Source: an uncultured Chloroflexia bacterium
Lineage (GTDB): Bacteria > Chloroflexota > Limnocylindria > Limnocylindrales > CSP1-4
Assembly (NCBI GenBank): GCA_963707215.1
Contig: CAVPPB010000003.1
Coordinates: 128,001-192,000, forward strand
Reading direction: 5' to 3'
Length of the DNA: 64,000 nt
Below are positions 4,615 through 59,853 of this stretch, one piece after another. The notes below the pieces were generated by a model. The model did no database searches, was not told where the DNA came from, and was given only the letters and a program-made list of their open reading frames with translations. The position numbers and the translations under genes are program-made. The stretch's first letter is position 1, and each line of letters starts with the position of its first letter.

Positions 4615-5214
4615 TCAGCCCTCCTTCCCGGGTTCGGGCCGGGGGCCTGCGTCGAAGTCCCTGTGGAAGGCCGACGCGGTCGGCTCGGCCTGGCCCTGGT
4701 AGCGCGACCGCAGCTCCGGGCTGCCATAGGGCCGCTCGACCGGGCTGCTCATCCGGAAGAAGCTGATCTGGCCGATCCGCATCCCGTGGTAGAGGGCGAT
4801 CGGCAGGTTGGCGACGTTCGAGAGCTCGAGCGTCAGGTTGCCCTTCCAGCCCGGGTCGACGTAGCCGGCCGTGGAGTGGATGAGGAGGCCGAGGCGCCCC
4901 AGACTCGACTTCCCTTCGAGCCTCGCCACGAGATCGTCCGGCAGCTCCACCCACTCGAGCGTCTGGCCGAGGACGAACTCCCCGGGATGGAGCACGAAGG
5001 GCTCGTCGTCGGCGATCGTCAGCAGCTCGGTGAGGTCCGGCTGGGGCTGGCGGACGTCGATGTATGCGTAGCGGTTGTTGCGGAAGACCCGGAAGCTGCG
5101 GTCGAGATGCAGGTCGACCGACGACGGCTGGAGATCGGCCGGCTGATAGGGGCGGATGACCACCCGGCCGGCCTCGAGCTCGGCCCGGATGTCGCGGTCG
5201 GCGAGGACGCTCAC
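4615..5214 (-). CDS. dcd: dCTP deaminase
   Basis: [42 protein letters not shown] motifs. Confidence 0.96.
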
Positions 5215-11825: not shown

Positions 11826-12326
11826 CTACCCTCCTTCTACGCCGGCGTGGTCGAACGGCCCGGCCAGGGTCTCGAGCGCGTGGTCGAGGAGCGCCTCGAT
11901 GGCCGCCAGCGACTCGAGCGCCCCGCGTGGGCTCCCGGGCAGGTTCACGACGAGGCTGCGGCCGCAGACGCCGGCCACCCCGCGTGACAGGTCGGCCATC
12001 GGAGTGCTGCGCCGGCCCTCGGCCCGGATGGCCTCGGCGAGCCCTGGGACCTCGTAGGCAAGTACCGTCATCGTCGCCTGGGGGGTGACGTCCCGCGGCG
12101 TGAGCCCGGTCCCGCCTGTCGTGAGGACGAGACCGTGCCGGGACGCGGCCCCGACGATCGCCGCTGCGATCGCCTCGGCCTCGTCGGGGACGACCCCGCG
12201 CTCCACGTGGAAGCCGAGTTCAGCGAGTCGTCGAGCGAGCGAGGCGCCGGACTCGTCATCGCGAACGCCGGCCGCGACTCCGTCGCTGCAGGTCAGGACG
12301 AAGGCGGACCGGGCAGTCGCTGTCAC
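11826..12326 (-). CDS. MogA/MoaB molybdopterin adenylyltransferase
   Basis: TTGGTGLTPRDVTPQAT, NLPGSP. Confidence 0.93.
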   Translation of the reverse strand: MTATARSAFVLTCSDGVAAGVRDDESGASLARRLAELGFHVERGVVPDEAEAIAAAIVGAASRHGLVLTTGGTGLTPRDVTPQATMTVLAYEVPGLAEAIRAEGRRSTPMADLSRGVAGVCGRSLVVNLPGSPRGALESLAAIEALLDHALETLAGPFDHAGVEGG

Positions 12327-12340
12327 CGACCCGACCCTCC

Positions 12341-12961
12341 TCAGCTCCGCCGCTGCGATCGGATCCGGCCAGCGGCGCGACCGCCCTTGCTACGGCGCGC
12401 GTCATGGTCAGGCGGCCCGTCGGGCGGCCGGGTCCACTCCCCGCTCTTGCCGCCGGTCTTCGAGACCAGGCGGACGCTCCGGATCTCCACCCCGCGCTCG
12501 ACACCCTTGACCATGTCGTACACGGTCAGGGCGGCCACGGATGCTGCTGTGAGCGCCTCCATCTCGACACCGGTCGGCGCCGTGGTGGCCGCCTCGGCCC
12601 GGATCCGGAGCACGCCCGCCGACCGGTCCGGGGTGATCTGGACGAGCAGATCGGTAAGCGGCAGTGGGTGACACAGCGGGATCAGCTCCGCCGTCCGCTT
12701 GGCGGCCATGACCCCTGCCAGCTCGGCTACGGTGAGGACATCGCCCTTGGGCCCCGTGCCGTCGATGACGAGGCTCAGCGTCTCCGGCTCCACCGTGACC
12801 AGGGCCTCCGCGACCGCCCGGCGGGCTGAGGCCAGCTTCTCCGACACGTCGACCATGCGGGGTCGCCCGCTTCGGTCGACGTGGGTGAGGCGACGCCGCT
12901 CGCGACGCGTCGCCCCATCGGCGGGTGGTCGGTCCATCGATCGTCCCTCGTCCGCGCTCAT
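12341..12961 (-). CDS. moaC: Cyclic pyranopterin monophosphate synthase MoaC
   Basis: LTHVD...MVDVSEK, KGDVL, LIPLCHP, TGVEMEAL, YDMVK, KTGGKSG. Confidence 0.96.
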   Translation of the reverse strand: MSADEGRSMDRPPADGATRRERRRLTHVDRSGRPRMVDVSEKLASARRAVAEALVTVEPETLSLVIDGTGPKGDVLTVAELAGVMAAKRTAELIPLCHPLPLTDLLVQITPDRSAGVLRIRAEAATTAPTGVEMEALTAASVAALTVYDMVKGVERGVEIRSVRLVSKTGGKSGEWTRPPDGPPDHDARRSKGGRAAGRIRSQRRS

Positions 12962-14289
12962 CGTTCGATCCAGCGAAGCTCGACGGGTGTCCCGGCTTCG
13001 ACCCGGTCGACGTCCTCCGGGATGACAGCGTAGCCATCCGCGAGAGCGAGTGCCGAGAGGACATGACTGCCCTGCCCCCCGGCGAGACGGACCCGGACCC
13101 GACCGGCCTCGTCGCGGACGATCCCGCCGTCGTTGTGCCGCTCGGCCACGACACGGAGGAAGGCCCGGCGTGCGGCGCCCTTCGAGGCCGCGTCGAGGAG
13201 CACCGCCCGGTCCGCCGGCTCCACGACGTCTCGACGGCCGGCGAGTCGTCGGATGGCCGGGCGGACGAACAGGTCGAAGGTCACGAAGCCGGAGACCGGG
13301 TTGCCCGGCAACCCGAAGAGCAGGACGGATCGGGAGCGCCCGGCGACCGCATCGGAGCGTGGCACGATCCCGAAGGCGAAGGGCTTGCCCGGCTGCACGG
13401 CGACCCGCCACAGCTCGACCCGTCCGAGCTCGGCGAAGGCATCCCGGACGACGTCGTACGGACCGACCGACACCCCGCCCGAGACGACGACGGCATCGAC
13501 CGCCGACAGCACGCTCGCGATCCGATCCAGGACGACATCGAGACGGTCCGGGGCGATCCCGAGGTCGACCGGCTCTGCGCCCATCGTCGCCACCAGGGCG
13601 CGGATGCCCGGCCCGTTGGCGTCGGGGATGCCGGCCGGCCCGAGTGGTTCGCCGGCGGGGACCACCTCGTCGCCGGTCGCCAGGACCGCGACCCTGGGCC
13701 GGACGTGGACGTCGAGCTGGGCGACGCCAGCTCCAGCCGCGACCGCGATCCCGGCCGGTCCGAGCACCATCCCCGCATCCAGGATCGTGCTGCCGGCCCG
13801 CAGGTCGTCGCCTCGCGATCGGATGTTCGCGCCTCGTGCGACGGCAGCGTGGACGAGACAGGCGTCCGGCAGCGGGCCCGTGGCGTCCCGGCCGCGCGGG
13901 CCGCTCGGCCGGGACGACGCGTCGAGCGGGGTCGTCAGCTCCACCGGCACCACCGCGTCCGACCCGGCCGGGATCGGCGCACCGGTGGCGATCCGGATGG
14001 CCGTTCCCGGCTCCAGAGCCCGCCCAGGCGCGGTACCCGCCGCGACCTCGCCCACGACGGGCAGGGCGATCGGCTGCTCCTCCTCGGCCCCGGCGATGTC
14101 GGTCGCCCGGACGGCGTAGCCGTCCATGGCGCTGTTGTCCCATGGCGGCAGGTCGGTGGTCGCGAGCACCGGGCGCGCCAGGACCCGGCCGAGTCCGCTG
14201 GCGACCGGCACGGACTCGGGCGGCAGCGGGCCCTCCACTGCCGCCAGCACGGCATCCCGGGCGGCCTCGACCGACAGGAGGCTGGTCAC
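12958..14289 (-). CDS. moeA: Molybdopterin molybdotransferase MoeA
   Basis: PPWDNSAMDGYA, IATGAPIP, ATGDE, SGGVSVG, QPGKP, GLPGNPVS. Confidence 0.96.
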   Translation of the reverse strand: MTSLLSVEAARDAVLAAVEGPLPPESVPVASGLGRVLARPVLATTDLPPWDNSAMDGYAVRATDIAGAEEEQPIALPVVGEVAAGTAPGRALEPGTAIRIATGAPIPAGSDAVVPVELTTPLDASSRPSGPRGRDATGPLPDACLVHAAVARGANIRSRGDDLRAGSTILDAGMVLGPAGIAVAAGAGVAQLDVHVRPRVAVLATGDEVVPAGEPLGPAGIPDANGPGIRALVATMGAEPVDLGIAPDRLDVVLDRIASVLSAVDAVVVSGGVSVGPYDVVRDAFAELGRVELWRVAVQPGKPFAFGIVPRSDAVAGRSRSVLLFGLPGNPVSGFVTFDLFVRPAIRRLAGRRDVVEPADRAVLLDAASKGAARRAFLRVVAERHNDGGIVRDEAGRVRVRLAGGQGSHVLSALALADGYAVIPEDVDRVEAGTPVELRWIER

Positions 14290-19591: not shown

Positions 19592-19663
19592 CCCGGCCCA
19601 GCGACAACCGTCCTGGCAGCATCGCTGGCAGCGATGGAGGCGGACAGAGGCGGACACACGGAA

Positions 19664-19693
19664 GGCGATCAGCCCGCGGCCGGGACGGGGGCC
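19664..19693 (-). repeat. Inverted copy of the 33-bp inter-cassette repeat
   Basis: GGCGATCAGCCCGCGGCCGGG--ACGGGGGCC versus reverse-complement consensus GGCGACCAGCCCACGGCCGGGCGACGGGGGCC. Confidence 0.7.
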
Positions 19694-19912
19694 TGTTCCT
19701 GTCAAGGTCGTCATCCGTATCACTCGATAACCGTCTAGCAGCATTGCGACGACGTCGAAGCAAGTCGATGCTCCGAACCGGGCGGAAACCGCGACCCAGC
19801 CACCCGAGAGCCCGCCCTGGGATCCTCGGGGCGAGGCTCAACCGTGTGCAGAACCGCAAGCAACGCCCCGCCGGGAGACCCAGCGGGCGCGTGATCGTGC
19901 GTGGACGGCGAC

Positions 19913-25484: not shown

Positions 25485-25589
25485 GGCGTCCTCCCGGAAC
25501 GGATGTGCGCGGGTCGGTCTCGCCAGTGGCTCGGCACGGTCCGGTTCAGCGGCCGTGGGCTCAGGATCGTGCGTCGATGCCCCCCGCGC

Positions 25590-25650
25590 TAAGGTGGTCA
25601 GGGTGCCGGTAGGCGACGCCTCGCCTGGAGGCCGATGTACCGAACGACCC
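25590..25650 (-). promoter_or_regulatory. Divergent copy of the 63-bp conserved promoter-like element
   Basis: CGTTCGGTACATCGGCCTC...ACCGGCACCCTGACCACCTTA, similar to copies at 26756, 28242 and 56130. Confidence 0.6.
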
Positions 25651-26731: not shown

Positions 26732-26754
26732 GACTAGCCCACGACCGGGCGACG
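26732..26754 (-). repeat. Partial inverted copy of the 33-bp inter-cassette repeat
   Basis: GACTAGCCCACGACCGGGCGACG versus GACCAGCCCACGGCCGGGCGACG (2 mismatches in 23). Confidence 0.65.
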
Positions 26755-26755
26755 C

Positions 26756-26818
26756 CGTCCGTTCAGGCCCTCAGCCTCTTGCCCGGTACGTTCCACGACC
26801 GGCACCCTGACCGCCATG
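26756..26818 (+). promoter_or_regulatory. 63-bp conserved promoter-like element
   Basis: Ungapped match to the elements at 28242-28304(-) and 56130-56192(-). Confidence 0.75.
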
Positions 26819-28804: not shown

Positions 28805-28881
28805 TGGTCGGGGCGACTGGATTCGAACCAGCGACCTCCTGAACCCCATTCAGGTGCGCTACCAGGCTGCGCCACGCCCCG
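28805..28881 (-). tRNA. tRNA-Pro (anticodon GGG)
   Basis: CGGGGCGTGGCGCAGCCTGGTAGCGCA-CCTGA-ATGGGGT-TCAGG...GGTTCGAATCC...CCCCGACCA; TAGACT -10 box upstream. Confidence 0.96.
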
Positions 28882-39927: not shown

Positions 39928-40944
39928 TCAGGCCCGGGGGTGGGCTCGGGCGTACATGTCCCGGATCCGCTCCCCGGAAAGGTGAGTGTACAACTGGGTC
40001 GTGCTGATGCTGGCGTGTCCCAGCAGCTCCTGGACCACCCGCAGATCGGCCCCGCCCTCCAGGAGGTGGGTGGCGAACGAGTGGCGCAGGGTGTGCGGGC
40101 TCACCCGATCGCCGAGGCCGGCCCGGGCGGCCGCGTTCTTGACGGTCGCCCAGGCCTGCTGGCGCGCCAACCGGCGGCCCCTGGCCGTCAGGAACAGCGG
40201 TCCGCCGGCGATGGGATGGACGTGACCCATGGCCAGCCAGGCCGCGCGCGGTCCCTCGATCCACCGCCCCAGCCACTCGAGGGCGACGTCCCCGACCGGC
40301 ACCAGCCGCTCCTTGTCGCCCTTGCCGACCACCCGGACGAAGGCGCCTTCGCGTGACAGGTCGTCGAGATCCAACCCCAGCGCCTCGGAGACCCGGAGGC
40401 CCGCCGCGTAGAGGAGCTCGAGGAGCGCCCGATCCCGGGTCGCCATGGCCGCCCCCGATACGTCGCCCACGGCCTCGCCAGCCGCCTCCAGGAGAGCCTC
40501 GACCTCGTCGACGGTGAGCGTCTCCGGCAGGAGGCGGGACTGCCGGGGCAGCTCCAGACGAGCGGCCACATCCGTCGCGATGAGGGACTCTCCGAAGGCG
40601 AACCGGTAGAACCCCCTGATCGAGGCCGCCCGGCGGCGGAGGCTCGTCGGCGCGAGCCCGGAGCGGCCGTCGAGCCTCCCCGACCCAGGCCGACCACGTC
40701 CAGCGGCCCGCACCAGGTGCGCCTCGGCGGCCTCCGGCCCGACGGCCCAGTCGGGTCCGGCGTCGACCGCGAAGGCCCGCAGGTCGCCGGCATAGGCCCG
40801 CAGCGTCGCTTCCGACAGTCCTCGCTCGACGCGCAGATGGTCGAGGTATCCGGCGACCGCGCGCGAGAAACGCGGGTCGACTGCCGACGGGCCGCCCGAC
40901 GGATCGACGACGCTCGAGCGGCGCGCGCGCGCGACCGGGGTCAC
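39928..40944 (-). CDS. xerD: Tyrosine recombinase XerD
   Basis: ERGLSE.T..AY, LYAAGLRVSE, GKGDKER, SPHTLRHSFATHLL, LLGHASISTTQLY; housekeeping context. Confidence 0.93.
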   Translation of the reverse strand: MTPVARARRSSVVDPSGGPSAVDPRFSRAVAGYLDHLRVERGLSEATLRAYAGDLRAFAVDAGPDWAVGPEAAEAHLVRAAGRGRPGSGRLDGRSGLAPTSLRRRAASIRGFYRFAFGESLIATDVAARLELPRQSRLLPETLTVDEVEALLEAAGEAVGDVSGAAMATRDRALLELLYAAGLRVSEALGLDLDDLSREGAFVRVVGKGDKERLVPVGDVALEWLGRWIEGPRAAWLAMGHVHPIAGGPLFLTARGRRLARQQAWATVKNAAARAGLGDRVSPHTLRHSFATHLLEGGADLRVVQELLGHASISTTQLYTHLSGERIRDMYARAHPRA

Positions 40945-42689
40945 CCTGCCGCCACGAGCCGCTCGCCGCGCCACCCCTCGGCCCGGTCGAGCAGCTCCCG
41001 GGCGCTCGCCCGGGCGGCCTCGCCGCCCGTCGAGCCGGCGAGCATGTGGGCGAGTTCCTCCGTCCGGGCATCGCCGACCAGCGTCCGGACCGTCGTCGAG
41101 GTGCGGCCGCCACGCTCGATCTTCTCGATCCGCAGGTGCGTGTCGGCATACGCCGCGATCTGCGCCAGGTGGGTCACGCAGAGGACCTGGTGGCGCCGGC
41201 CGAGGGCCCACAGGGCGCGTCCGACGGGCTCGGCGCTGCGCCCGCCGATGCCGCTGTCGATCTCGTCGAACACCAGGGTCGGCGTGTCGTCCAGTCCGGC
41301 GAGGACCTCGCGGATCGCCAGAGCCACGCGCGAGAGCTCGCCGCCGGACGCGATCCGGGCCAGCGGCCGGGCCGGCTCACCCGGGTTGGGGGCGAAGCGG
41401 AAGACGACTTCGTCCACGCCGGTCTCGTCGAAGGCCACCGCGTCGCCGCCGAGCTCCACGGCCGGTTCGTTCGGCCCGGCGATCCGACGGCCCAGGCCGA
41501 CCGAGAAGGCGTCGCTGGGGAAGTCGAGGGGCTGGAGGGTCCGACCGACCGCCTCCGCCAGACCCTCGGCCGCCCGGGCCCGCCGTGCGGAGAGCTCGGC
41601 CGCGGCCGTCGCCACGTCCTTCAGCAGGGTCGCCTCGAGCTCGCTGCGACGGGCCCGCTCGGCATCCAGCCCCTTCAGGCGCTCGACCTCGGATCGGCAC
41701 TGCTCGCCATGGGCGATCACGGTCGCCTCGTCGTCGCCATAGCGGCGCTCCAGGGCGTAGATGAGCGACAGGCGCTCCTCCAGTCGAGCCAGCTCGGCTG
41801 GATCGTGGTCGACGACCTCGGCCAGCGCGCGCGCCTCCTCGGCAGCGTCCTCGAGCTCGGCGGCGAGCCCACCCAGGCGCTCGGCGAGCGGAGCGAACCG
41901 CGGATCGAGACGGGCGACCCGCTCGGCCGTCGTCGCTGCCGTGGCCGTCCCATCGCGGGCGCCGCCAGGATCCCCGAGCAAGGTCTCCCGGATCTCCCCC
42001 ACAGCGCGGATCGTGGTCTCGGCGTGTCGGACCGCTGCCAGGCGTCCCTCGATCTCGGTCGCCTCCCCGGGGCGCAGCCGGGCCGCCTCGATCTCCCGAG
42101 CCTCGTGGTCGAGGACCTCCAGCCGTCGGGCGAATTCGCGGGCGTCGGCGGGGAGTCCGGCCAGGACCTCGCGGTTCTGACGCCAGGCCTCGACGGCCAC
42201 GGCCACGGCGGCCCGGTCCCCCTGGTGCTCCCCGAACGCATCGAGGAGGTCGCGCTGGTGGCGATCGTCGAGGAGTCGCTGCTGATCGTGCTGACCGTGG
42301 ATGTCCACGAATTGGCCGACCGTGTCGGCCAGGCGGCCGGCCGTCACGGCCTCGTCGCCGAGCCGAGCCGACGATCGGCCCGCGGCGCTGACTTCGCGGA
42401 CCACGGTCAGATGACCATCGGGTCGCTCGAAGCGGGCCTCGACCCGGGCACCGGGTGCCCCGTGGCGCACGAGGCCCGTGTCCGCCCGGGCACCGAGGAC
42501 CAGGCCCAAGGCATCGATGAGCAGGCTCTTGCCGGCACCGGTCTCGCCGCTCAGGACGATCAGGCCCGCCGAGAGGTCGACGCGGACCCGCTCGAGGAGA
42601 GCGAGACCTTCGACGGCGAGCGAAGCCAGGCTGCCGGAGCCGACCGCGTCCCGGCCTGCCGGATCCTGCCGCTCGGCACCGGCGGTCAC
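40941..42689 (-). CDS. recN: DNA repair protein RecN
   Basis: GETGAGKS, HGQHDQ, ASGGELSR, FDEIDSGIGG, VTHLAQIA. Confidence 0.96.
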   Translation of the reverse strand: MTAGAERQDPAGRDAVGSGSLASLAVEGLALLERVRVDLSAGLIVLSGETGAGKSLLIDALGLVLGARADTGLVRHGAPGARVEARFERPDGHLTVVREVSAAGRSSARLGDEAVTAGRLADTVGQFVDIHGQHDQQRLLDDRHQRDLLDAFGEHQGDRAAVAVAVEAWRQNREVLAGLPADAREFARRLEVLDHEAREIEAARLRPGEATEIEGRLAAVRHAETTIRAVGEIRETLLGDPGGARDGTATAATTAERVARLDPRFAPLAERLGGLAAELEDAAEEARALAEVVDHDPAELARLEERLSLIYALERRYGDDEATVIAHGEQCRSEVERLKGLDAERARRSELEATLLKDVATAAAELSARRARAAEGLAEAVGRTLQPLDFPSDAFSVGLGRRIAGPNEPAVELGGDAVAFDETGVDEVVFRFAPNPGEPARPLARIASGGELSRVALAIREVLAGLDDTPTLVFDEIDSGIGGRSAEPVGRALWALGRRHQVLCVTHLAQIAAYADTHLRIEKIERGGRTSTTVRTLVGDARTEELAHMLAGSTGGEAARASARELLDRAEGWRGERLVAAG

Positions 42690-51008: not shown

Positions 51009-52235
51009 TCAGGCCGGGAGGGCGATCACGTCGCGAGGGAACCGGGTGAGCAGGTCGACGCGTCGGGCGCCGCTGTCGACGTGGACGAGGTCCTCGATCC
51101 GGACCCCCGTCCGACCGCCGAGGTAGACGCCCGGCTCGACCGAGAAGACCGTCGGGCTCGGGAGCGGGGTCTCCTGCGCCACCCGCGAGAGGCTCGGCGC
51201 CTCGTGCGTGGCCAGGCCGATCCCGTGGCCGGTCCCGTGGCCGAACCGCTGGCCGTGTCCTGCGGCCGCGATGATCTCGCGAGCGGCCGCGTCGACCGCT
51301 CGGCCCGAGGGCAGCACCCCCTCGCCGACCGACCGCTCCAGCAACCCGATGGCGGCGGCCTGGGCCCGGGCGACCAGGTCGTAGAGCCCGAGATCGCGCA
51401 CCGCGGGCTCGCCGAGGAAGAGGGTCCGAGTCATATCGCTGCGGTAGCCGGCCACCTGCGCGCCGAAGTCGAAGAGCATGACCCGACCGGACCGGAGCCG
51501 CCGAGGGCCCGGCGAGCCGTGCGGAAGGGCGGCCTGTGACCCCGCCAGCGCGGCGACGTCGAAGGCCAGGGCCTCGGCCCCCTGCTCGCGCATGAGGATC
51601 TCGAGACGCCAGGCCAGCTCGCGCTCGGTGGTTCCGACGCGGACGTGCGGCAGCAGCGCCGCCAGGGCTCGATCCGCAACGGACGCGGCAGCCGCGATCC
51701 GCTCCACCTCGGGCGCTTCCTTGACGGCCCTGGCGTCGTCCACCCAGCGGCCGGCCGGGACGAGCTCCACGTCCGGTGCGGCCGCCGCCAGCGCCTCGTA
51801 CAGCCCATGGCTGATGTCGCCGACGGGCACGGCGACCCGCCTGGCCCCGATGGTGCCGACGAGCTCCGGCCAGCTGGCCGGCAGGTCGTACGTCACGGCC
51901 TCCACGCGCGAGCCGGGCGATTCGCGACGGCACTGCAGGGTGTACCTCGTGTCGGCCAGGACGACCACCTCGTCCATCGAGACGAGGAACCGACCCGAGT
52001 GACCCGCGACCTTCTCCTCCCCGTCGCCCAGGACGACGCCGGTGAGGTAGCGGATCTCCTCGCGACGGAGCCCGAAGTAGGCGTCGACCCCGGCCTCGGC
52101 CAACTGCTCGCGCAGGCCGGCCAGCCGCCGTGGACGTGCCTCGCGGTCGGCCTCGGCCCACTGCCGGATCCGGCGAGCCGTCGGCGGGGCTGCGAAGTCG
52201 GCCGGGACGGGCAACCGCCGAGGAGCGCGGCCCAT
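51009..52235 (-). CDS. pepQ: Xaa-Pro aminopeptidase (M24)
   Basis: ALPHG, DFGA...YRSDMTRT, HGTGHGIGL..HEAP, VEPGVY, VRIED. Confidence 0.93.
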   Translation of the reverse strand: MGRAPRRLPVPADFAAPPTARRIRQWAEADREARPRRLAGLREQLAEAGVDAYFGLRREEIRYLTGVVLGDGEEKVAGHSGRFLVSMDEVVVLADTRYTLQCRRESPGSRVEAVTYDLPASWPELVGTIGARRVAVPVGDISHGLYEALAAAAPDVELVPAGRWVDDARAVKEAPEVERIAAAASVADRALAALLPHVRVGTTERELAWRLEILMREQGAEALAFDVAALAGSQAALPHGSPGPRRLRSGRVMLFDFGAQVAGYRSDMTRTLFLGEPAVRDLGLYDLVARAQAAAIGLLERSVGEGVLPSGRAVDAAAREIIAAAGHGQRFGHGTGHGIGLATHEAPSLSRVAQETPLPSPTVFSVEPGVYLGGRTGVRIEDLVHVDSGARRVDLLTRFPRDVIALPA

Positions 52236-52391
52236 CAGAGGTAGCCGTACAGTTGCACGGTAAGCAACACTACCGCGACGGCTCGTGATGAAGGGTTGCC
52301 TCGATCGTGCGCACGGCGCGATGGTAGCGCGGGGGACGGCCCCCGGTCGCCCGCCGCTCCGCTGGCCTGCCGGAGCCGGGCAGGATGGGGG

Positions 52392-52991
52392 TCAGTCGCT
52401 CGAGCAGTGGATCCTTCGCTGCCACGCGCGCTCCCGTCGCTCGTGCTCAGCGTGTTCTGCGGCCGGGGTGTAGACGCGCACCTCGACGGTCGGGCCGACG
52501 AGGACGGAGAGCGCCGTCCGTGTCCGCCGCGACTCGCTGATCCACAGGACCACGCCGACCGTCGGACGCGGGTCGGATCGCCGGACGCGCTCGGCATCGG
52601 ACTCGATCAGGTATCCGGCTTGTTTCACTCCGTCCGCGCTCGTGACGACGATGCCGTCGGGGTCCTCGACCAGGACGATCCGCCGCCCGAGCGCGAACGC
52701 GTCGGCCTGCGCGTCGGGGAGGAGGTCGGTCACCCGTAGCAACTTGGCCCCGGCGGCGAGGAACTCGTCGGGGTAGCCACGGTCGCCCCACGTGAGCATC
52801 TTCCCGTCCGTAGGGTCTGAGAGCGTCACGCCAGAGGTTCGCTCTCGCCCTTCGCTGTAGTTCCAGAAGAGGTGCGCCGGCATGGTCACCGACCCGACGG
52901 TCACCTCGGCGAGCTGATCGTCTCGTCCGGTCGCGCCCTGCTCGAACGGGACCGTGGTGCTACCTCCGAAGAGGTTGCGAAGGAAGCCCAT
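52392..52991 (-). CDS. Hypothetical protein, possible HIRAN-like domain
   Basis: GGAGG RBS; MGFLRNLFGG start; L.EDP...I.V......AGYL pattern. Confidence 0.7.
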   Translation of the reverse strand: MGFLRNLFGGSTTVPFEQGATGRDDQLAEVTVGSVTMPAHLFWNYSEGRERTSGVTLSDPTDGKMLTWGDRGYPDEFLAAGAKLLRVTDLLPDAQADAFALGRRIVLVEDPDGIVVTSADGVKQAGYLIESDAERVRRSDPRPTVGVVLWISESRRTRTALSVLVGPTVEVRVYTPAAEHAEHERRERAWQRRIHCSSD

Positions 52992-53130
52992 CTTCCATGT
53001 CCTCCGGCTGGACCTCGGACCAGCGTACTGCGCCCGCCGGGGATGAGGACCGAAACGGCCCCCGTCGCCCGGCCGTGGGCTGGTCGCCTCCCCCTGGGCG
53101 AGAACGCGCCGACGGGCCGAGGAACGGATC

Positions 53131-53156
53131 TGCAACGCCCTCCCATCTCAGGCGTC
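53131..53156 (+). promoter_or_regulatory. Candidate ECF-sigma promoter TGCAAC-N16-CGTC
   Basis: 8 nt upstream of ATG 53165; same motif at 54439. Confidence 0.6.
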
Positions 53157-53164
53157 ACCTATGC

Positions 53165-53560
53165 ATGGTCGAGAGTCTCCGCGCTCAGCTCCGACGGCAC
53201 ATCTACGTCACTGCCGCGCTCATCGGGCCGCCCGCGATCTTCATCGGGTTCCTGGCCGCCATCCTCGGCTGGGCGTTGTTCCCCGACGTGGGCTGGGTCC
53301 GCCTCGACGAGGATGGAGACGAGATCCCCCTACTCCACATCGCGATCTTCTCGGTCGTCTGGATCTTCGCCCTTTACCTGCTGAGCGCCGCGGTTCTCGG
53401 GAAGCGCATCAGCCTGATGGTCAGCGAGGAGCACCGGGCCTACGCCCCGCCAGGGTCCTTCCCCCGACGGCCGCGGGGCAACGGCTACTGGATGGTCGCG
53501 GCCGGCTCGGGCATCGCCGTGTTCTTCATCGTGGCTGCGGCCATGGGATGGCTCACCTAG
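53165..53560 (+). CDS. Hypothetical membrane protein (3 TM)
   Basis: Three hydrophobic helices; stop codon 5 nt before a repeat copy. Confidence 0.75.
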   Translation: MVESLRAQLRRHIYVTAALIGPPAIFIGFLAAILGWALFPDVGWVRLDEDGDEIPLLHIAIFSVVWIFALYLLSAAVLGKRISLMVSEEHRAYAPPGSFPRRPRGNGYWMVAAGSGIAVFFIVAAAMGWLT

Positions 53561-53706
53561 CAGGCCGGCCCCCGTCGCCCGGCCGTGGGCTGGTCGCCTT
53601 CCCCCTGAGCGGCGAGATCGCGCCGGCCGGCCCGGAGCGGGCGATCTCCGCCGGCTCCGCGGACTACGCCGACTGGCTCGCCTGTCCGGAGTGCGTCACC
53701 TACCGC

Positions 53707-54240
53707 TCAACACTTGGTTTCCTGGTTGGCATGCAGCCGCAGCCGCGCCCGTCTGCTCGCCGCGTACGCGGTCAGGGCGACGAACGCAAGGAGGCACGCG
53801 ACCGCGTACATCAACCCCTGCGCCGCGGGCGTCTCCGGCGCGACCGCCGTGTCCGGGAGTGCGGACACCGTGACGTCCACGGCGCCGGCGCAATCGGCTC
53901 CCGGGACGCTCGCCGTCACCGTCCAAGCGCCCTCCTGGTTCCCCCAAAAAGCATGCACGAAGAGGAAGTCTCCCGCCGCGTCCGCGATCCCCGGCGAGAA
54001 GTCGCCGAACGGGACTCCGTTCCACGTGAAGGTCAGGTCGATCTGCGCGCCGGGCACGAACGAGCCCCAGAACGTGATCTCTTCTAGCTCCACAGTAATG
54101 CTCGTGCTGCCCTCGTCGCCGGGGGCCGGGTCGATCGCAGCGCGGAGCACGCAGTCGCCCGGTGCCGCGGCGACGGGCGGCGCGGCCGCGAGCGTGACCG
54201 CAAGGAGTACAGCGGCAAACGAAACCGAGATGCACCGCAC
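53707..54240 (-). CDS. Secreted protein with C-terminal LPDTA sorting-signal-like motif
   Basis: Signal peptide, Ig-like beta-rich core, LPDTA + TM + RRARLR tail. Confidence 0.75.
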   Translation of the reverse strand: MRCISVSFAAVLLAVTLAAAPPVAAAPGDCVLRAAIDPAPGDEGSTSITVELEEITFWGSFVPGAQIDLTFTWNGVPFGDFSPGIADAAGDFLFVHAFWGNQEGAWTVTASVPGADCAGAVDVTVSALPDTAVAPETPAAQGLMYAVACLLAFVALTAYAASRRARLRLHANQETKC

Positions 54241-54438
54241 AGCAGGACCCTCCCGGGACGCCGCATGCGGGTCGGGTCCGCCAGTGGCTCGACACGGTCC
54301 TAGGCAGCCAGGGTTGGGACCGGGTCTCATCGCCCCCCGCGATGGCGCGGACGATGCGGCCGGCTGCACCGGCAGTCAAGATGCGTCGGTCATCGAACGG
54401 CCCCCGTCGCCCGGCCGCGGGCTGGTCGCCTTTCCCGC

Positions 54439-54464
54439 TGCAACGCCTCGCTGCCTGTGACGTC
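54439..54464 (+). promoter_or_regulatory. Candidate ECF-sigma promoter TGCAAC-N16-CGTC
   Basis: Between repeat 54398-54430 and ATG 54476. Confidence 0.6.
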
Positions 54465-54475
54465 AACCTCTTGAG

Positions 54476-54910
54476 ATGAGATCGCAGGGGATCGGCCCGC
54501 TCACGGACAGCGGTGACGGCGACCGCTGGACGACGGCGGTCGGCGCGGCGCGGGCCTTCGTCATCGGTTCGGTCGGGACGGCGGTCGCCGTAGCCGGCTG
54601 GGTGGCGCTCGTCCAGCTTCCAGCCCTCATCGAGAGCCTCGGCGCGCTGGTGTTCTTCGGCCTGCCGCCCCTGCTGGCCGCCATGGTCGGGGCAGCCACC
54701 GCCCGGTGGGGCGACCGGACGATGGAGGCCGCGATCGCCGGTGCCCTCGGCGGCTGGCTCACCTGTGCCGCCCTTCCGCATGCGCTGACCCTCGTCGGTG
54801 GCCGGGTCGATCCGGTCTTCTACCCCTACTGGCTCATGGCCGCCGGCACGGCCGGGCTCCTCGCCTACGGCGTCGGGTTCGCCGCCGGGTGGTGGTTCTC
54901 GGAGCGCTAG
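54476..54910 (+). CDS. Hypothetical membrane protein (4 TM)
   Basis: Hydrophobic helices; TAG stop 1 nt before a repeat copy. Confidence 0.75.
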   Translation: MRSQGIGPLTDSGDGDRWTTAVGAARAFVIGSVGTAVAVAGWVALVQLPALIESLGALVFFGLPPLLAAMVGAATARWGDRTMEAAIAGALGGWLTCAALPHALTLVGGRVDPVFYPYWLMAAGTAGLLAYGVGFAAGWWFSER

Positions 54911-54992
54911 ACGGCCCCCGTCGCCCGGCCGTGGGCTGGTCGCCCGTAACGCTTCGCCGCCCATGGCGCCCTGGTCACGGGAGGACCGGCCG

Positions 54993-55265
54993 GTGGAGAG
55001 CCGGAATCTCCTCGTGGCCCTCGGCATCTTGCTCGGGGTCGCGATCGGGGCGTTCGTGATGGCGAACCGGTCACGTTCTCGCAGCCCGGGCAGCAGGGGC
55101 CAGCCTGTTGGAGTCGGCTGCCTCTGGGCCCCGGTCCTCGGAGCTCTGTCGCTCGCCGGCGGCTGCAGCGTCCTGGTCGTCAGCGTTGCTCCCCTCGAGA
55201 TGACGTCACGCCGACGGAGATGCTGCGCTCCCGTCACCCGGAACCCCAGGTCGGGTCGTGGCTAG
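54993..55265 (+). CDS. Small hypothetical membrane protein (possibly truncated)
   Basis: GGAGG RBS, GTG start, two hydrophobic segments. Confidence 0.5.
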   Translation: MESRNLLVALGILLGVAIGAFVMANRSRSRSPGSRGQPVGVGCLWAPVLGALSLAGGCSVLVVSVAPLEMTSRRRRCCAPVTRNPRSGRG

Positions 55266-56113
55266 CGGGGTGCGACGACCGGCTCGAGCGACTCGAGCAT
55301 CGACTCGATCGAGGCGGCGACCTCGCGATCAGCTTCGTCGACGTAGGCGGTGATGAACAGGATGTCACCGGCGCCGAGCACCGGGTCCGGAACGCCGATG
55401 ACGGCGCACCAGGTCGCCTCGATCCGGCGGGGATCGCTTGGTCGATCGGCTGATCGCCCCGGCTGGCCCGGGGCGGGCTCGATGACCGCGACCCAGCGGG
55501 CGCGGACCGCCGGACCGAATGGCAGCTCGACGCGGTCGGCGACCGACGCTTCCAGGCCGGTCGCCCTGAAGCCGGGGTAGTCGGTCGCGACGGACCCTTC
55601 GGAGTCGAGGTCCTCCTCCACGAGGGCGAGGATCTCCTCGGCCGTCGCCGGCGCTCCCCAGGAACCGACGTTGACCCGGAGCATCGCGTCAACGCGGTCG
55701 TCGGTCGAGGGGAACCAGGCCAGGAACGCGGCCGGGAACGCGTCGCCGGACGTGGAGGCGATCCACAGCTCGTGCGCGGCCGGATGCGGCTGGAGACCGC
55801 CGAAGCCCGGATGCTCCTCGAGCATCCGCAGCATCGCCGCCTCGTATCCGGGACCGCTGCTGGCGCCATGCCAGCCATCGGGCAGGTCCATCCTGAACGG
55901 AAGGCCCGCGAATGGATCCGGTGTCGGCGGGCCGGCCCGGGTCGTCGTGGGGGCCGGCGTCGGTCTCGGCGTCGATCCAGCCGAGGACGTCGCCACCGAT
56001 CCGGACCCGGGTGTCGCTCCTGGCGCAAGCGTGGGGGTGGTCCCGCATCCGGCCACCAGGAGCGAGCCGAGAGCCAGCGGCGGTAGCGATCGCAGGACCC
56101 GCTTCACGACCAT
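55262..56113 (-). CDS. Hypothetical lipoprotein
   Basis: Lipobox LVAGC, Pro/Thr linker, FRMDLPDGW motif. Confidence 0.8.
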   Translation of the reverse strand: MVVKRVLRSLPPLALGSLLVAGCGTTPTLAPGATPGSGSVATSSAGSTPRPTPAPTTTRAGPPTPDPFAGLPFRMDLPDGWHGASSGPGYEAAMLRMLEEHPGFGGLQPHPAAHELWIASTSGDAFPAAFLAWFPSTDDRVDAMLRVNVGSWGAPATAEEILALVEEDLDSEGSVATDYPGFRATGLEASVADRVELPFGPAVRARWVAVIEPAPGQPGRSADRPSDPRRIEATWCAVIGVPDPVLGAGDILFITAYVDEADREVAASIESMLESLEPVVAPR

Positions 56114-56129
56114 ATCAGTGCCCCCGCGC

Positions 56130-56192
56130 TATGGCGGTCAGGGTGCCGGTCGTGGAACGGACGGGTCTAGAGGCCGAGGGCCTGAACGGACG
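56130..56192 (-). promoter_or_regulatory. 63-bp conserved promoter-like element
   Basis: CGTCCGTTCAGGCCCTCGGCCTCTAGACCCGTCCGTTCCACGACCGGCACCCTGACCGCCATA, nearly identical to 26756-26818. Confidence 0.75.
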
Positions 56193-56323
56193 CGGGGCCA
56201 CGGCAGCGGGCTGACCGCCTTCCCGTCCAGATCCCTGCTGCGACATGTACTACGACAGCCTCTGCGGGGCTACGATGGCCCCGACGCGCGGCGACCCCTC
56301 GGTAGGCACCTGGAGGGCGAACG

Positions 56324-57691
56324 ATGGCAGCGAACCGCTCCGCTCAGGAGCGCCCGGAGGCGCGCTGGCAACGGGCGAGGCTCATCCCGGCGGTCGGCAT
56401 CAAGGGCGATGTCGAGCAGGAGCTGCGTGCGACCTCGGCACTCCTGGCCGTGATGGTCGCGGTGCCGGACTTCGGACGTGAGATCGTGGCTCGCGTCGGA
56501 GCACCGGGAGGCCGGATCTCCACCTTCACCGAAGTTCGCTTCGATCGCGATGACGGCAAGACACTCCGTCCGGACGGGGCCATCCTCGTTGAGCGGGGCA
56601 GCACCCGGTGGACCTGCCTCGTCGAAGTCAAGACTGGGAAGAACGAGTTGCAGACGGCCCAGATCGAGGCGTATCTCGATCTGGCCCGGGCTCACGCCTT
56701 CGACGCCGTCCTGACGATCTCGAACAGCATCGCCTCCGACTCGACCGAGCTGCCCGTGGCGATCGACCAGCGCCGTGCCCGGGGCTTGAAGATCCGTCAC
56801 CTCTCGTGGTGGCGCATCCTCACCACCGCGATCGTCGAGAAGGAGCACCGCGGGATCGACGACCCCGACCAGGCGTGGATCCTGGGCGAGTTGATCCGCT
56901 ATCTCCAGGACGAACGATCGGGTGCGTCGGGCTTCGAGGAGATGGGGCCCAACTGGGTTGCCATTCGCGACGGAGCCATGCGCCAGACGCTCCGCCAGAG
57001 TGACCCGGCGGTGCGGGACATCGCCGACCGGTGGGAGCAGTTCATCGAGTACGTCAGCCTCGATCTCAGGCAGACGCTGGGACGACCAGTCGTGCCGCTC
57101 TGGGCTCGGAAGAGCACCCGCGCCACGCGACTTCAGGAAGCGACGCGGAGTCTCGTCCAGGACGGCACGCTCAGGGGCTCCATCAAGGTCCCGGACACGG
57201 CGGCCCCGCTGGACTTGGAGGCCAATCTGCGGACGCAGCGCCTGACCACGAGCGCCGAGATCGCGGCACCACGGGAGGGTCGGGCGCAGACGCGCATCAA
57301 CTGGATGCTCCGACAGGCGAAGGAGATGCCCGCCGATCTCCGTGTCGAGGTGCGTTACGTCAATGCGCGAGAGCACCCCGCGATGTTGCTCGGGAGCGCC
57401 ATCGACCGGCCTGAGCGGCTCCTGTATGGACCCGACCCGAAGCGGGAACCTCGGTCCTTCCAGCTGGCCCTGACGAAACCGCTCGGCCGGAAGGGCGGGA
57501 AGGGCTCCGGCTCGTTCCTTGGCGACTCGCGCGAGCAACTCTTGTTGTTCTATCGCGAGGTGCTGCAGCAGGTCCGCGCCTGGCAGCCACCTGCGCCGCG
57601 CCTGCCCGAAGCCGCCAAGGCTCCGGATTCCGCGGACTCGGGTCTTCCGAGCGGGGCACCGACCGACGTGGACCCGCTCGCAGGGGACTAA
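56324..57691 (+). CDS. PD-(D/E)XK nuclease-fold protein (family often labelled stress response protein)
   Basis: ARLIP..GI, RATSALLAV, RPDG...LVEVKTG.N.L...Q...Y, VLTISN; GGAGG RBS. Confidence 0.8.
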   Translation: MAANRSAQERPEARWQRARLIPAVGIKGDVEQELRATSALLAVMVAVPDFGREIVARVGAPGGRISTFTEVRFDRDDGKTLRPDGAILVERGSTRWTCLVEVKTGKNELQTAQIEAYLDLARAHAFDAVLTISNSIASDSTELPVAIDQRRARGLKIRHLSWWRILTTAIVEKEHRGIDDPDQAWILGELIRYLQDERSGASGFEEMGPNWVAIRDGAMRQTLRQSDPAVRDIADRWEQFIEYVSLDLRQTLGRPVVPLWARKSTRATRLQEATRSLVQDGTLRGSIKVPDTAAPLDLEANLRTQRLTTSAEIAAPREGRAQTRINWMLRQAKEMPADLRVEVRYVNAREHPAMLLGSAIDRPERLLYGPDPKREPRSFQLALTKPLGRKGGKGSGSFLGDSREQLLLFYREVLQQVRAWQPPAPRLPEAAKAPDSADSGLPSGAPTDVDPLAGD

Positions 57692-57888
57692 GTCTTCCGT
57701 CCCTCCGTCGCCCGGGCCTGGGCTCCGACTGGCCCGGGAAGCTGGCGCTCGGCGCATTGAGCCCAAACTGGCCCCCGTCGCCCCGGCCGTGGGCTGGTCG
57801 CCTCCCCCTGGACGAGATCGCTATCCGGCCACGGAGCCGGGGGCGAGCGACACCCTAGGTGGCGCGGCTCACCGCAGACTTACCAGCC

Positions 57889-58113
57889 ATGCGTCGCCGC
57901 GATCTCGAGCGCCTCCTTCTCGCCGGTCGAGCGGCCCACCTCCCCCGGCTCGTCGATGCTGGATACGCCCCAGGAGCCGCCGAGAAGGCGATGGTGGCGT
58001 GGGAGGCCAGGGCCGACGCCGAGGGCCGAGAGCGCGGCGAGGGGGCGTTCTGGGACGGCATCGAGGCGTGGGCAGCGGAGCAGCGGCCCTGGCGGCGGGA
58101 TGTCCCGCATTGA
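57889..58113 (+). CDS. Small hypothetical protein
   Basis: Follows a repeat copy; a degenerate paralogue at 27421-27660 supports coding status. Confidence 0.65.
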   Translation: MRRRDLERLLLAGRAAHLPRLVDAGYAPGAAEKAMVAWEARADAEGRERGEGAFWDGIEAWAAEQRPWRRDVPH

Positions 58114-58145
58114 CGGCCGCGCCCGACCGGTCCTAGCGTGCAACC

Positions 58146-58280
58146 GTGACCACTCGGCGGAAGACACTCACGGTCCTGCTCGTCGCCCTGCTGGTGGTCG
58201 TTGCCGCCCTCGCGCTGTACGTCGGGGTCCAGGTGTGGCAGATCCTCGAGATGCACTCGGGCGGCATCCCGAGGTTGTAG
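58146..58280 (+). CDS. 44-aa single-TM peptide (leaderless)
   Basis: TAGCGT -10 box 6 nt before GTG; MTTRRKTLTVLLVALLVVVAALALYVGVQVWQILEMHSGGIPRL. Confidence 0.55.
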   Translation: MTTRRKTLTVLLVALLVVVAALALYVGVQVWQILEMHSGGIPRL

Positions 58281-58384
58281 CCGGCTTTGGTGCGGTCCTG
58301 ACCGTCGTCTTGGTCGTCGGCTTCGTCATGGCTGGCGATCCCTTCCCCGTGCCGGACGTCCGGTCGGGGTCAGGGGGTGGGTAG

Positions 58385-58513
58385 ATGAAGCGTTGGCTCG
58401 TGGTGGTCGGGTTGGTCGTGCTTGTAGCCGTGGTCGTGGTCGTGGTTTGGCCTGTCGTGTTTCCGCCAGGCGGGAGGATGGTCGGGTGTGAACTGCTAAC
58501 CGTCTATAGGTAG
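58385..58513 (+). CDS. 42-aa single-TM peptide
   Basis: MKRWLVVVGLVVLVAVVVVVVWPVVFPPGGRMVGCELLTVYR; G-rich RBS; overlaps the mltG end by 10 nt. Confidence 0.4.
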   Translation: MKRWLVVVGLVVLVAVVVVVVWPVVFPPGGRMVGCELLTVYR

Positions 58514-59853
58514 CCGTACTTGCGGAGCTTCTCCTCGTGCTCGGCCAGCGACTTCGAGAAGTCGTGAGCCCCCCCACCGTCGGGGATGGCCACGAAGTAG
58601 ACGTAGCCGTCGTCCTGGTCCGGCGCCAGCGAGGCGTCGATGGAGGCAGCCGTCGGCGACACGATCGGTCCGGGGATGAGCCCGCGGACCCGGTAGGTCT
58701 GGTAGCCGGCCAGCTCGGGAGGGAACTCGACCCCGGCCAGGGGCACGCCGAGGGGCTTCCAGAAGAAGTACTCCTGCCACTGCTCGAACGGCAGCTCGCC
58801 AAGGTTCAGCGTGTCGTTGCCCCAGATCACCGTGGGGTCCGCGTTGAGAAGCGAGCCCGTGTCGAGGCGGTTCTGGTAGACGCCGGCGATGAGCGGGCGC
58901 TCCTCGTCGAGGACCGCCTCTCGCTCCACGATCGAGGCGAGGGTGAGGATCTCGTAGAGGCCGAGGCCGCGCACCTCGGGCACGGCGATCCGATCCGGCC
59001 CGACCTCCTCGTAGAACTCGTCGAGCATCATCCGGACGAGGGCCTCGGCGTCGGTCCGGCCATCGGGATCGGTCCGCAGCCGGTACGTGGACGGGTAGAG
59101 ATAGCCCTCCAGCGTCGCCCCCTCCGGGAGCTCCACCCACGGGTATTCGGCGAGGAGGGCCGGCGGCGGGGCCGTGACGAGGTCGTAGAACGCCTTCGGA
59201 TCGACCCCGGACTCGACCGTCTGGAGCTTGGCCGTCATCTGCTCGAGGCGGATGCCCTCCTTGAAGGTCACATCGGTCGCCGTGACCACGATCCGGTCCT
59301 CCTCGAGCGCGCGCACCACCTCCCGCGGGTCCATGTCCCGGCGGAGGCGGAACGGCCCGGCCTCGAGACGATCGCCCAGCGACGCCTCCCAGGCGGCGTA
59401 ATCGAAGGCCGGCCGCGACAGGATGAGACCGTCCGCGAGCAGCCGGTCACCGACGGTCGTCACCGTGTCGCCGGCTTCGACGACCCAGGCGACCTCGGAC
59501 GGGTCCGACGACGCCGGCGTGGCCAGCTCGTCCGCGAGCGACTCCTCGACGAGCGAGGCGACGAAGGGAAGCCGCCAGGCGCCGGGGTTGTCGATCGCCC
59601 AATCGGCGACGGCCGCGGCGGCGAGGGGCCGGAAGACGGTGACGGCGAGGAACGCCATGACGACGACGATCCCGCCGACGAACAGGAGGAAGCGCAGGAA
59701 GCTCGGCCCGCTACCGCGCCGCGGAGGGCGCCGGCGACCCGGAGCGCCGTTCGGTCGCACCGGCCCGATGCCCGGGTCCACTGTCGGCCCGTTGCCGATC
59801 GGGTGGGCCTGCGACCGACCGCCCCGCGGCGCTCCTCCTCGTCTGACCGTCAT
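58504..59853 (-). CDS. mltG: Endolytic transglycosylase MltG
   Basis: TM anchor, EG.R, LEGYLYP.TY, LASIVEREA, IAGVY.NRL, ADPT, GLIPGPI, YFV. Confidence 0.95.
   Translation of the reverse strand: MTVRRGGAPRGGRSQAHPIGNGPTVDPGIGPVRPNGAPGRRRPPRRGSGPSFLRFLLFVGGIVVVMAFLAVTVFRPLAAAAVADWAIDNPGAWRLPFVASLVEESLADELATPASSDPSEVAWVVEAGDTVTTVGDRLLADGLILSRPAFDYAAWEASLGDRLEAGPFRLRRDMDPREVVRALEEDRIVVTATDVTFKEGIRLEQMTAKLQTVESGVDPKAFYDLVTAPPPALLAEYPWVELPEGATLEGYLYPSTYRLRTDPDGRTDAEALVRMMLDEFYEEVGPDRIAVPEVRGLGLYEILTLASIVEREAVLDEERPLIAGVYQNRLDTGSLLNADPTVIWGNDTLNLGELPFEQWQEYFFWKPLGVPLAGVEFPPELAGYQTYRVRGLIPGPIVSPTAASIDASLAPDQDDGYVYFVAIPDGGGAHDFSKSLAEHEEKLRKYGYL

Follow-up and report, generated by a model that had tools for sequence, protein, structure and literature searches.

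Several described systems combine short repeated sites with small accessory genes. In accretion of the CIME (cis-mobilizable element) type, small integrative elements are added in tandem at tRNA genes. The pdif sites that bound plasmid modules alternate in orientation. Mosaic intergenic repeats are represented by the enterobacterial repetitive extragenic palindromic (REP) sequences and bacterial interspersed mosaic elements (BIME), as well as by the neisserial NIME/dRS3 (neisserial intergenic mosaic element) and Correia elements. Integrons occur in Chloroflexi, according to the excerpted account of Cury et al. 2016 (PMC4889954). Here, we analyzed a 33-bp repeat that separates small genes between pepQ and mltG in a 64,000-nt stretch of DNA (the window, C3:128001-192000) from the genome of an uncultured soil bacterium of the Limnocylindrales (Chloroflexota). 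An earlier note on this DNA had compared the locus to an integron cassette cluster and had proposed gene capture at a different kind of recombination site.

The repeat copies were clustered and co-oriented, had sharp edges and mixed flanks, lay close to tRNA genes and attachment (att) sites, and differed in location between species. We tentatively read them as seam sites that would have been left by the recombinational addition of gene units, and rate this reading at somewhat less than an even chance. It was the best joint account because it covers together a co-orientation that is independent of the genes, the sharp edges, the mixed flanks, the att proximity and the species-specific array sites.

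The metagenome-assembled genome (MAG) that holds the window, G000, has a size of 3.26 Mb in 5 contigs, a G+C content of 72% and a completeness of 85%. A second species of the same genus, G001, is represented by a genome that is 90% complete. Genome-wide copies were located with an nhmmer profile made from the five good window copies and run on G000, and a second search was performed with a 30-mer, allowing up to three mismatches, over G000, G001 and 39 other relatives. Anatomy and conservation were determined from a set of 41 repeat copies from at least three genomes.

On the + strand of the window, the 33-mer was found without mismatch at 53056, 53566 and 54912 and with one mismatch at 54398, and no match occurred in 100 dinucleotide shuffles of the sequence. 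The earlier note had counted five near-perfect copies. Four of them have at most one mismatch, and the fifth is real (nhmmer E 7e-13), but it starts at 57770 rather than 57769 and was missed by the gapless search because of a 1-base insertion. Among three copies proposed as degenerate, that at 56197 held up; it is decayed (83% identity over 24 nt, under the nhmmer threshold) and counts as a homologous relic because it forms the same junction after a 75-nt promoter module as six other genomic copies. The stretches at 52337 and 57701 (87% over 23 nt for the latter) are weak, and neither was reported by nhmmer. As had been claimed, every copy of the array lies on the + strand, against a gene order of -,+,-,+,+,-,+,+.

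In G000, 20 copies were detected at E<0.01 together with 3 weaker ones. The clusters comprise the window array with five copies (and one more), C3:394-398 kb with seven, C1:257-259 kb with three, C1:101-108 kb with four, and two copies near tRNA-Pro. Single copies were located at C3:339820 and C3:1266148, and a doubtful one on C2. Two further copies within the window are on the - strand. The first, at 19660-19697 (C3:147660-147697; nhmmer E 3.6e-4), belongs to the islet near tRNA-Pro, and the second, at 26732-26763 (nhmmer E 0.085), is decayed, directly follows a copy of the promoter module and lies 2 kb from tRNA-Pro(ggg) at 28805-28881.

Orientation was uniform in 5/5 multi-copy clusters of G000 and in 8/8 two-copy contigs of G001, for which chance would give about 2^-25. 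At C1:257-259 kb, every gene is antisense to the repeats. With up to three mismatches, the 30-mer had 14 matches in G000, 8 in G001 and none in the 39 other relatives. A metagenome scan returned the repeat on two contigs; in the mobile-element collections it was found on no viral contig and had no plasmid or phage BLAST match. The earlier note had said that a repeat scattered among housekeeping intergenic regions would speak against gene capture; the copies are limited to a few variable islets.

Conservation peaks in GTCGCCCGGCCGYGGGCTGGTCGC, a 24-nt sequence in which each position is conserved in at least 90% of the 41 copies, compared with 77-80% identity between the two species in flanking housekeeping genes. 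The outer 5' bases are conserved at 70-80%. An extension of about 50 nt gives a long form in 19/41 copies and is lacking in 22/41, and in the window array the extension into CCCCTG..CGAGAWCGC was confirmed for three copies, after 53056, 53566 and 57770. The left flank is the stop of a co-oriented gene (TAG in 4/4 clear cases), one of two promoter-like modules that point away from the repeat, or unrelated DNA. The 33-nt edges are sharp, in that each left-flank type occurs with each right-flank type, extension or none. Repeat orientation was independent of the orientation of the neighbouring genes. A coding reading of the repeat was rejected by eye, as differences in copy length are not multiples of three.

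Module 1, of about 75 nt, is present in 13 copies in G000, and in 7 of these the repeat begins at the same base. It is common to unrelated genes and is also plentiful in G001. The G000 genome further contains 17 matches at E<=0.01 to riboswitches of the c-di-GMP-II-GCG/GAG variant class, 13 of them over the cut-off, which sit ahead of small ORFan secreted or membrane genes and include window 54260-54346 (-) and 25503-25593 (-). Two riboswitches have no gene behind them, for example at C1:101968-102055. Arrays have tracts of 37-55 nt in common at 100% identity, with neighbouring DNA about 75% identical. One such 55-nt tract, at C1:103728-103782 (positions 8728-8782 of locus L003), is 100% identical to window 57808-57862 in inverted orientation, with neighbours at about 76%. 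It is fused to a truncated copy of the small ORF I behind a paralogue of gene E, and could stem from a recent exchange, a local inversion or an artefact of assembly.

The islets that hold the arrays consist of small ORFan genes for secreted and membrane proteins and have a G+C content of 0.69-0.71, slightly below the 0.72 of the genome. A tRNA gene is within 3 kb at 4/7 G000 loci, compared with a permutation mean of 0.82 (P = 0.005); the distances are 114 nt for Leu-caa, 134 nt for Asn, 2.0 kb for Pro-ggg and 2.8 kb for Lys-ctt. A tRNA gene or fragment was present on 8/11 repeat-bearing G001 contigs (genes for Val, Leu-caa, Leu-taa, Pro, Ser and Arg; fragments of Asn, Gly, Leu and Arg). Repeats follow Val-tac, Ser-tga, Leu-taa and Arg-tct in G001, and none is found there in G000. 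The repeat copies at tRNA-Leu(caa), an orthologous locus, agree at 29/33 positions between the species in surroundings that cannot be aligned.

The window array is an islet of this kind away from any tRNA gene, the nearest being 23 kb off, and BLAST of all 52 G000 tRNAs revealed no tRNA fragment at the array. The pepQ and mltG flanks are syntenic in G001, where the 6.3-kb interval of G000 is replaced by 4.0 kb of different, repeat-free DNA. A comparison of the interval between mltG and pepQ, which the earlier note had called for across strains, thus shows a difference between the two species.

A classical island was observed at tRNA-Val of G001. It spans about 3 kb and is bounded by the tRNA on one side and by a 48-nt copy of the tRNA 3' end (100% identity) on the other, and the site is empty in G000. 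A right half-repeat begins 8 nt past the tRNA, and a left half-repeat in the same orientation lies 1.2 kb further on, joined to an ORF I leader. The two halves bracket two units that are parted by one full repeat, and both break in the central GGCC. Such breaks would be expected if the site had been cut at its centre; the case is a single one.

The same tRNA BLAST, run against the genome and the loci, matched no repeat copy. The 33-mer is thus not a tRNA-derived att site, since the tRNA search misses it and the same repeat follows many different tRNAs. An initial search in G000 for repeats of the tRNA 3' ends of Lys, Asn and Leu found none. The search with all tRNAs did reveal tRNA fragments elsewhere in G000, and these are repeats distinct from the 33-mer. 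Pieces of tRNA-Gly(gcc), tRNA-Gly(ccc) and tRNA-Pro(tgg) that are displaced from their genes were located at C3:1266222-1266251, C1:722394-722424, C3:1275549-1275591 and C3:1300651-1300684, and these fragments in other islet regions are scars of integrative elements. A motif, TYCACGCACGAAA, directly adjoins the ends of several tRNA genes or fragments, at C3:401164-401176, C3:156788-156800 and C1:101011-101023 of G000 and in loci L028 (about 1110-1122), L023 (about 1735-1747) and L019 (about 4700-4712). In many cases a GC-rich hairpin comes next, with an arm equal to the 5' edge of the repeat, and the motif could act as a terminator or form part of an att arm.

Taken as seams, the 33-bp repeats would part small, independently transcribed accessory-gene units in an islet family specific to this genus. 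A unit would typically consist of a single ORFan gene for a secreted or membrane protein and a putative promoter of its own, often with a c-di-GMP-II-variant riboswitch ahead of the gene. Most islets lie directly behind tRNA genes and would be integrase-type islands with integrases that are now decayed or gone, and the pepQ-mltG array would be an islet of this family that does not adjoin a tRNA gene. We infer that recombination at the repeat built the arrays: a unit would be added by Campbell-type recombination at an existing copy, which would duplicate the site in direct orientation. In one version, the reaction would be site-specific and carried out by a putative enzyme, perhaps cutting the central GGCC; in another, it would be driven by homology through 33-85 nt of identity.

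A bolder proposal is that Chloroflexota possess a new kind of gene-cassette system. In it, units of one gene each would move out of and into a double-stranded 33-bp site that is cleaved at its central GGCC, by means of either an enzyme from a family outside those searched or the host Xer proteins. The units would have their own promoter and often a riboswitch of the cyclic-dinucleotide type, and arrays would grow in islets linked to tRNA genes and, now and then, at other places such as the pepQ-mltG interval. We consider this proposal unlikely, if still worth stating.

Several observations weigh against recombination at the repeat. No enzyme acting on it was found among the recombinase and transposase families searched. 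End points of G001-G000 homology fell within 60 nt of a repeat in 5/54 cases against 3.1 expected (P = 0.20) and within 150 nt in 11/54 against 6.3 expected (P = 0.04), from which overall no enrichment was concluded. Two islet genes in G001 lie between genes that are adjacent in G000, and both junctions are free of repeats. The leftmost window copy (52337) retains its left half better than its right, whereas a simple hybrid first junction would predict the reverse. The half-repeat pair at tRNA-Val was seen once, and one of its breaks is explicable as a deletion at GGCC microhomology. In addition, the tRNA-Leu(caa) copy has been kept in place since the species split, which could equally reflect a function in cis.

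Searches with PF00589 detected two Xer-type genes (XerD-like and XerC-like) and one frameshifted phage-type integrase in G000. G001 has two Xer-type genes and one integrase fragment, which is positioned between two repeats and tRNA-Arg. The phage-type tyrosine integrase of G000 (C3:399876-401216; 11876-13216 of locus L001) has two frameshifts, its end overlaps tRNA-Lys(ctt), and it sits between the C3:394-398 kb array and that tRNA. It was rejected as the array recombinase because it is frameshifted, is absent from array-bearing G001 and has homologues in repeat-free genera. A specific recombinase or transposase co-occurring with the repeat, which the earlier note had suggested looking for, was found in none of the families searched. 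Absence of an enzyme is not proven by these searches because G000 and G001 are 85% and 90% complete. The note's proposal of gene capture is partly supported: it has the cassette-like layout on its side, but neither a partner enzyme nor interspecies breakpoints enriched at repeats.

The XerD-like recombinase gene adjoins an ORF called RecN-like by eye from its translation (window 39928-41211 (-) / 40941-42689 (-)). A dif candidate at C3:40313-40340 is the sole ATAA-N6-TTAT-type sequence in G000 and is unlike the repeat; with 3 mismatches it was present in one other genus (G007), that is in 1/25 relatives, and is not conserved enough to be called. GC skew of G000 was too weak to locate the terminus.

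Paralogues, or homologues in the sister species, are rare among the unit genes, and those found sit in other islets. Several G001 islet genes match G000 genes from different islets. ORF I is the only islet gene family common to several islets and both species: intact or decayed copies are present in four islets and in G001, and several G000 copies are truncated or contain stops. A search returned seven relatives of ORF I, all unnamed, and this family of about 70-85 aa occurs in islets of the genus and of a few related genera, including L023 (3192-3440, -), L041 and L042. A structure model predicts three helices (pLDDT 75.5), and Foldseek with this model gave no match at E<=0.001.

In the window, the array is flanked on the left by a PepQ-like M24 peptidase (51009-52235, -; Pfam PF00557 and PF01321), conserved and syntenic with contig C77 of G001, and on the right by YceG/MltG (58504-59853, -; Pfam PF02618), conserved and syntenic in G001. 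The eight ORFs between them had no match in Pfam, NCBIfam or PADLOC. The earlier note's description of single-gene intervals in either gene orientation was confirmed, the exception being the convergent pair between 54912 and 56197, and so was its remark that plus-strand genes stop 1-5 nt short of a repeat (53560/53566 and 54910/54912).

From the left, a weak degenerate copy, read by eye at 52337-52370 (+) with a recognisable left half and a poor right half, is followed by gene B (199 aa; 52392-52991, -), an ORFan identified from its ORF and start codon. A core repeat at 53056-53088 with a partial 3' extension to 53107 (+; 33-mer search and nhmmer) separates the divergent genes B and C. Gene C, ORFan and membrane-like (131 aa; 53165-53560, +), has its TAG stop 5 nt upstream of the next repeat, which is a long form with the full extension of about 50 nt (53566-53641, +; 33-mer search and nhmmer) between the convergent genes C and D. 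The ORFan gene D (177 aa; 53707-54240, -) is judged secreted from its translation, with a signal-like N-terminus and an LPDTA, transmembrane and basic C-terminal tail. Read by eye, its C-terminus (ALPDTA, spacer, hydrophobic helix, basic tail) resembles a sortase-like sorting signal. The leader of gene D contains a c-di-GMP-II-GCG variant riboswitch aptamer (54260-54346, -; Rfam RF03170 at 53.3 bits, gathering score 47.9). Between this riboswitch and the next repeat, a promoter-like module (TTGACT ... CATCGT; 54347-54397, -) was recognised by eye; homologous modules occur at other copies, and the promoter function is putative.

The core repeat with one mismatch (54398-54430, +; 33-mer search) precedes the ORFan membrane gene E (144 aa; 54476-54910, +), which has a paralogue with 71.5% amino acid identity in the tRNA-Leu islet (C1:103787-104215). 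A core repeat without extension (54912-54944, +; 33-mer search) begins 1 nt past the TAG stop of gene E. It is followed by the convergent pair of gene F, a small ORFan (100 aa; 54963-55265, +), and gene G, an ORFan and lipoprotein-like (283 aa; 55262-56113, -), both without a Pfam match. A module-1 promoter/leader element of about 75 nt (56121-56192, -), one of the 13 genomic copies of which 7 are directly abutted by a repeat, adjoins the decayed core repeat at 56197-56224 (+; 83% over 24 nt, positional homology). The ORFan gene H (455 aa; 56324-57691, +) has no homologue in G001, and the nuclease fold once assigned to it was not borne out by Pfam, NCBIfam or PADLOC. A weak repeat-like stretch (57701-57735, +), the core repeat with the 1-nt insertion and a variant extension (57770-57850, +; nhmmer) and ORF I (74-84 aa; 57859-58113, +), a predicted three-helix protein with no known relative, complete the array.

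The main rival to the seam reading is a cis-acting element under selection. By analogy, the repeat might be an operator, insulator or terminator with a logic like that of phage stoperators, and its co-orientation would go back to a polar ancestral element rather than to insertion; this we regard as a serious but rather doubtful alternative. Strong sequence conservation of the block is in its favour, as is the reverse-complemented repeat directly upstream of a -35-like box, in the promoter presumed to drive the riboswitch or leader, in 7/13 module-1 copies and at module-2 copies. Furthermore, GC-rich hairpins after several tRNA genes in the genus have arms identical to the outermost bases of the long form (ACGGCCCCCG ... 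CGGGGGCCGT), and the ends of the long form can pair: in a two-helix model (10+9 bp), 69.8% of cells pair, against 29-52% with slid partners. However, that pairing showed no covariation and was reached by 78/500 shuffles, and the 3' half needed for the hairpin is missing in 22/41 copies. Neither strand yielded an RNAalifold consensus structure or compensatory change, and the single-strand folding of eight repeat sequences was no better than that of shuffles (z-scores -0.39 to +1.65). The repeat lies upstream in just 5/16 good riboswitch copies. Its orientation is independent of gene direction, unlike that of terminators, promoters and stoperators, a pattern for which this alternative has no explanation.

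A mobile element of the MITE (miniature inverted-repeat transposable element) type is quite unlikely. The long form of about 85 nt with inverted termini of 9-10 nt would be moved by a transposase in trans, and the short forms would be truncated copies. Inverted termini (CGGCCCCCG / CGGGGGCCG) were seen by eye in roughly half of the 19 long forms, the edges are sharp, and the element is restricted to the genus with an identical consensus in at least three genomes. Transposition, however, predicts neither strict co-orientation within clusters nor confinement to a few islets. The best-conserved part is internal rather than terminal, and target-site duplications were not seen by eye. Among the transposase families searched, rve was found in neither G000 nor G001, and Y1/RAYT (REP-associated tyrosine transposase; PF01797), serine recombinases and IS110 were not found in G000; no search was aimed at other transposase families. 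The earlier note had offered a REP/MITE-like element as its second option, which fits poorly given that no RAYT was found in G000 and that copies are clustered rather than dispersed.

A multi-copy small RNA gene, or an RNA-level element transcribed from the repeat, has a very low probability. The conserved sequence, the length of about 85 nt and the C-rich stretches would suit it, but half of the copies are just 33 nt long, no promoter stands at a fixed distance, and neither strand has conserved structure or covariation. The repeat matched no Rfam family: an E-value scan of 51500-59000 gave the riboswitch only, and a scan of 15 loci at gathering score gave only tRNAs and riboswitches.

It is scarcely credible that the repeats are attC sites of a degenerate integron, a true CALIN (cluster of attC sites lacking an integrase), since, despite two or more co-oriented sites within 4 kb, mostly single-gene intervals, the lack of an integrase nearby and the integrons known in Chloroflexi from the excerpted account (PMC4889954), no R/L boxes (RYYYAAC/GTTRRRY) were seen by eye, folding is no better than in shuffles, 22/41 copies lack what would be the other half of a palindrome, and the genes, which run in both orientations, have promoters of their own. 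Moreover, the integron-integrase model TIGR02249 scored the two Xer-type genes of G000 at 113 and 111 bits and the fragment of its frameshifted integrase at 34, against a cut-off of 265.

Public reads added module orders already known from the assembly. The best runs contained 6-12% of sampled words, and four runs gave short, low-depth contigs of relatives. Read depth peaked at repeated modules, and the joints observed (e.g. 56185>53570 and 53638>56121) are module orders already present elsewhere in the G000 genome. A homology break at 55192 was common to three runs and is positioned away from any repeat. Circle or empty-site junctions were not readable in these short, low-depth data, which weigh neither for nor against recombination.

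If the copies are recombination sites, the arrays would amount to an integron-like means of storing and reshuffling genes for surface proteins, built on another type of site in a soil phylum that has been little studied, and the cassette genes would be tied to an orphan riboswitch class. Regardless of mechanism, the locus is a compact example of how a limited set of conserved seams, promoters and riboswitches makes up accessory islets in uncultured bacteria, and the repeat is a sequence tag for locating such islets of the genus in metagenomes.

The cassette-like layout without attC that the earlier note had described was confirmed, with co-oriented sites between unrelated genes and with attC features and an integron integrase both absent. 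As in CALINs, in the excerpted account of PMC4889954, co-oriented sites part mostly single, unrelated and largely unknown genes with no integrase nearby, content varies among relatives, and co-oriented genes stop just short of the site. Unlike the attC of that account, a structure-conserved imperfect palindrome, the site here is a 33-bp block conserved in sequence. Also unlike CALINs as excerpted there, R/L boxes are lacking, IntI was found in neither genome, and genes with their own promoters or riboswitches run in either direction. Membership in integrons or CALINs was accordingly rejected on attC boxes, folding and IntI, although at least two co-oriented sites do occur within 4 kb.

Compared with REP/BIME, NIME/dRS3 and Correia elements, the repeat is alike in forming a kit of promoter module, core and extension that is freely combined in intergenic spaces beside surface-protein genes, in being conserved between related species and in often abutting stop codons. 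It differs in numbering about 20 copies in a few islets, against hundreds genome-wide, and in its strict co-orientation within clusters; unlike REP/BIME, its core is non-palindromic and no RAYT was found in G000 (85% complete). Membership in REP/BIME with RAYT was rejected on the 20 clustered copies at E<0.01, the non-palindromic core and the lack of PF01797 in G000.

The pdif modules of Acinetobacter plasmids, moved by the host XerC/XerD in the part of PMC6449649 drawn on here, are similar in that a short conserved site (about 28 bp for pdif) bounds modules with no dedicated recombinase. By the same partial account, a further likeness is that the only intact recombinases found here are XerC-like and XerD-like, and that the repeat has an inner GCCC-N6-GGGC inverted pair. 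In contrast to pdif sites, all repeats are direct, no inner arms of the ATAA/TTAT type are present, and, where pdif sites resemble dif, the host dif was not identified here. Xer/dif modules were rejected on site orientation, as all copies in a cluster are direct.

The tycheposons, as far as they are described in the excerpts of bioRxiv 10.1101/2020.12.28.424599, differ in one respect at the seams themselves: the inter-unit repeat here does not derive from a tRNA and is shared by islets behind at least 10 different tRNA genes. The window array, unlike the tycheposons of those excerpts, also has no tRNA or tRNA fragment. The islets nevertheless share several features with tycheposons as excerpted there. 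They lie directly behind tRNA genes with content that differs among relatives, decayed integrases stand beside two arrays, and the tRNA-Val islet combines 48-nt tRNA-derived direct repeats with an empty site in the sister species.

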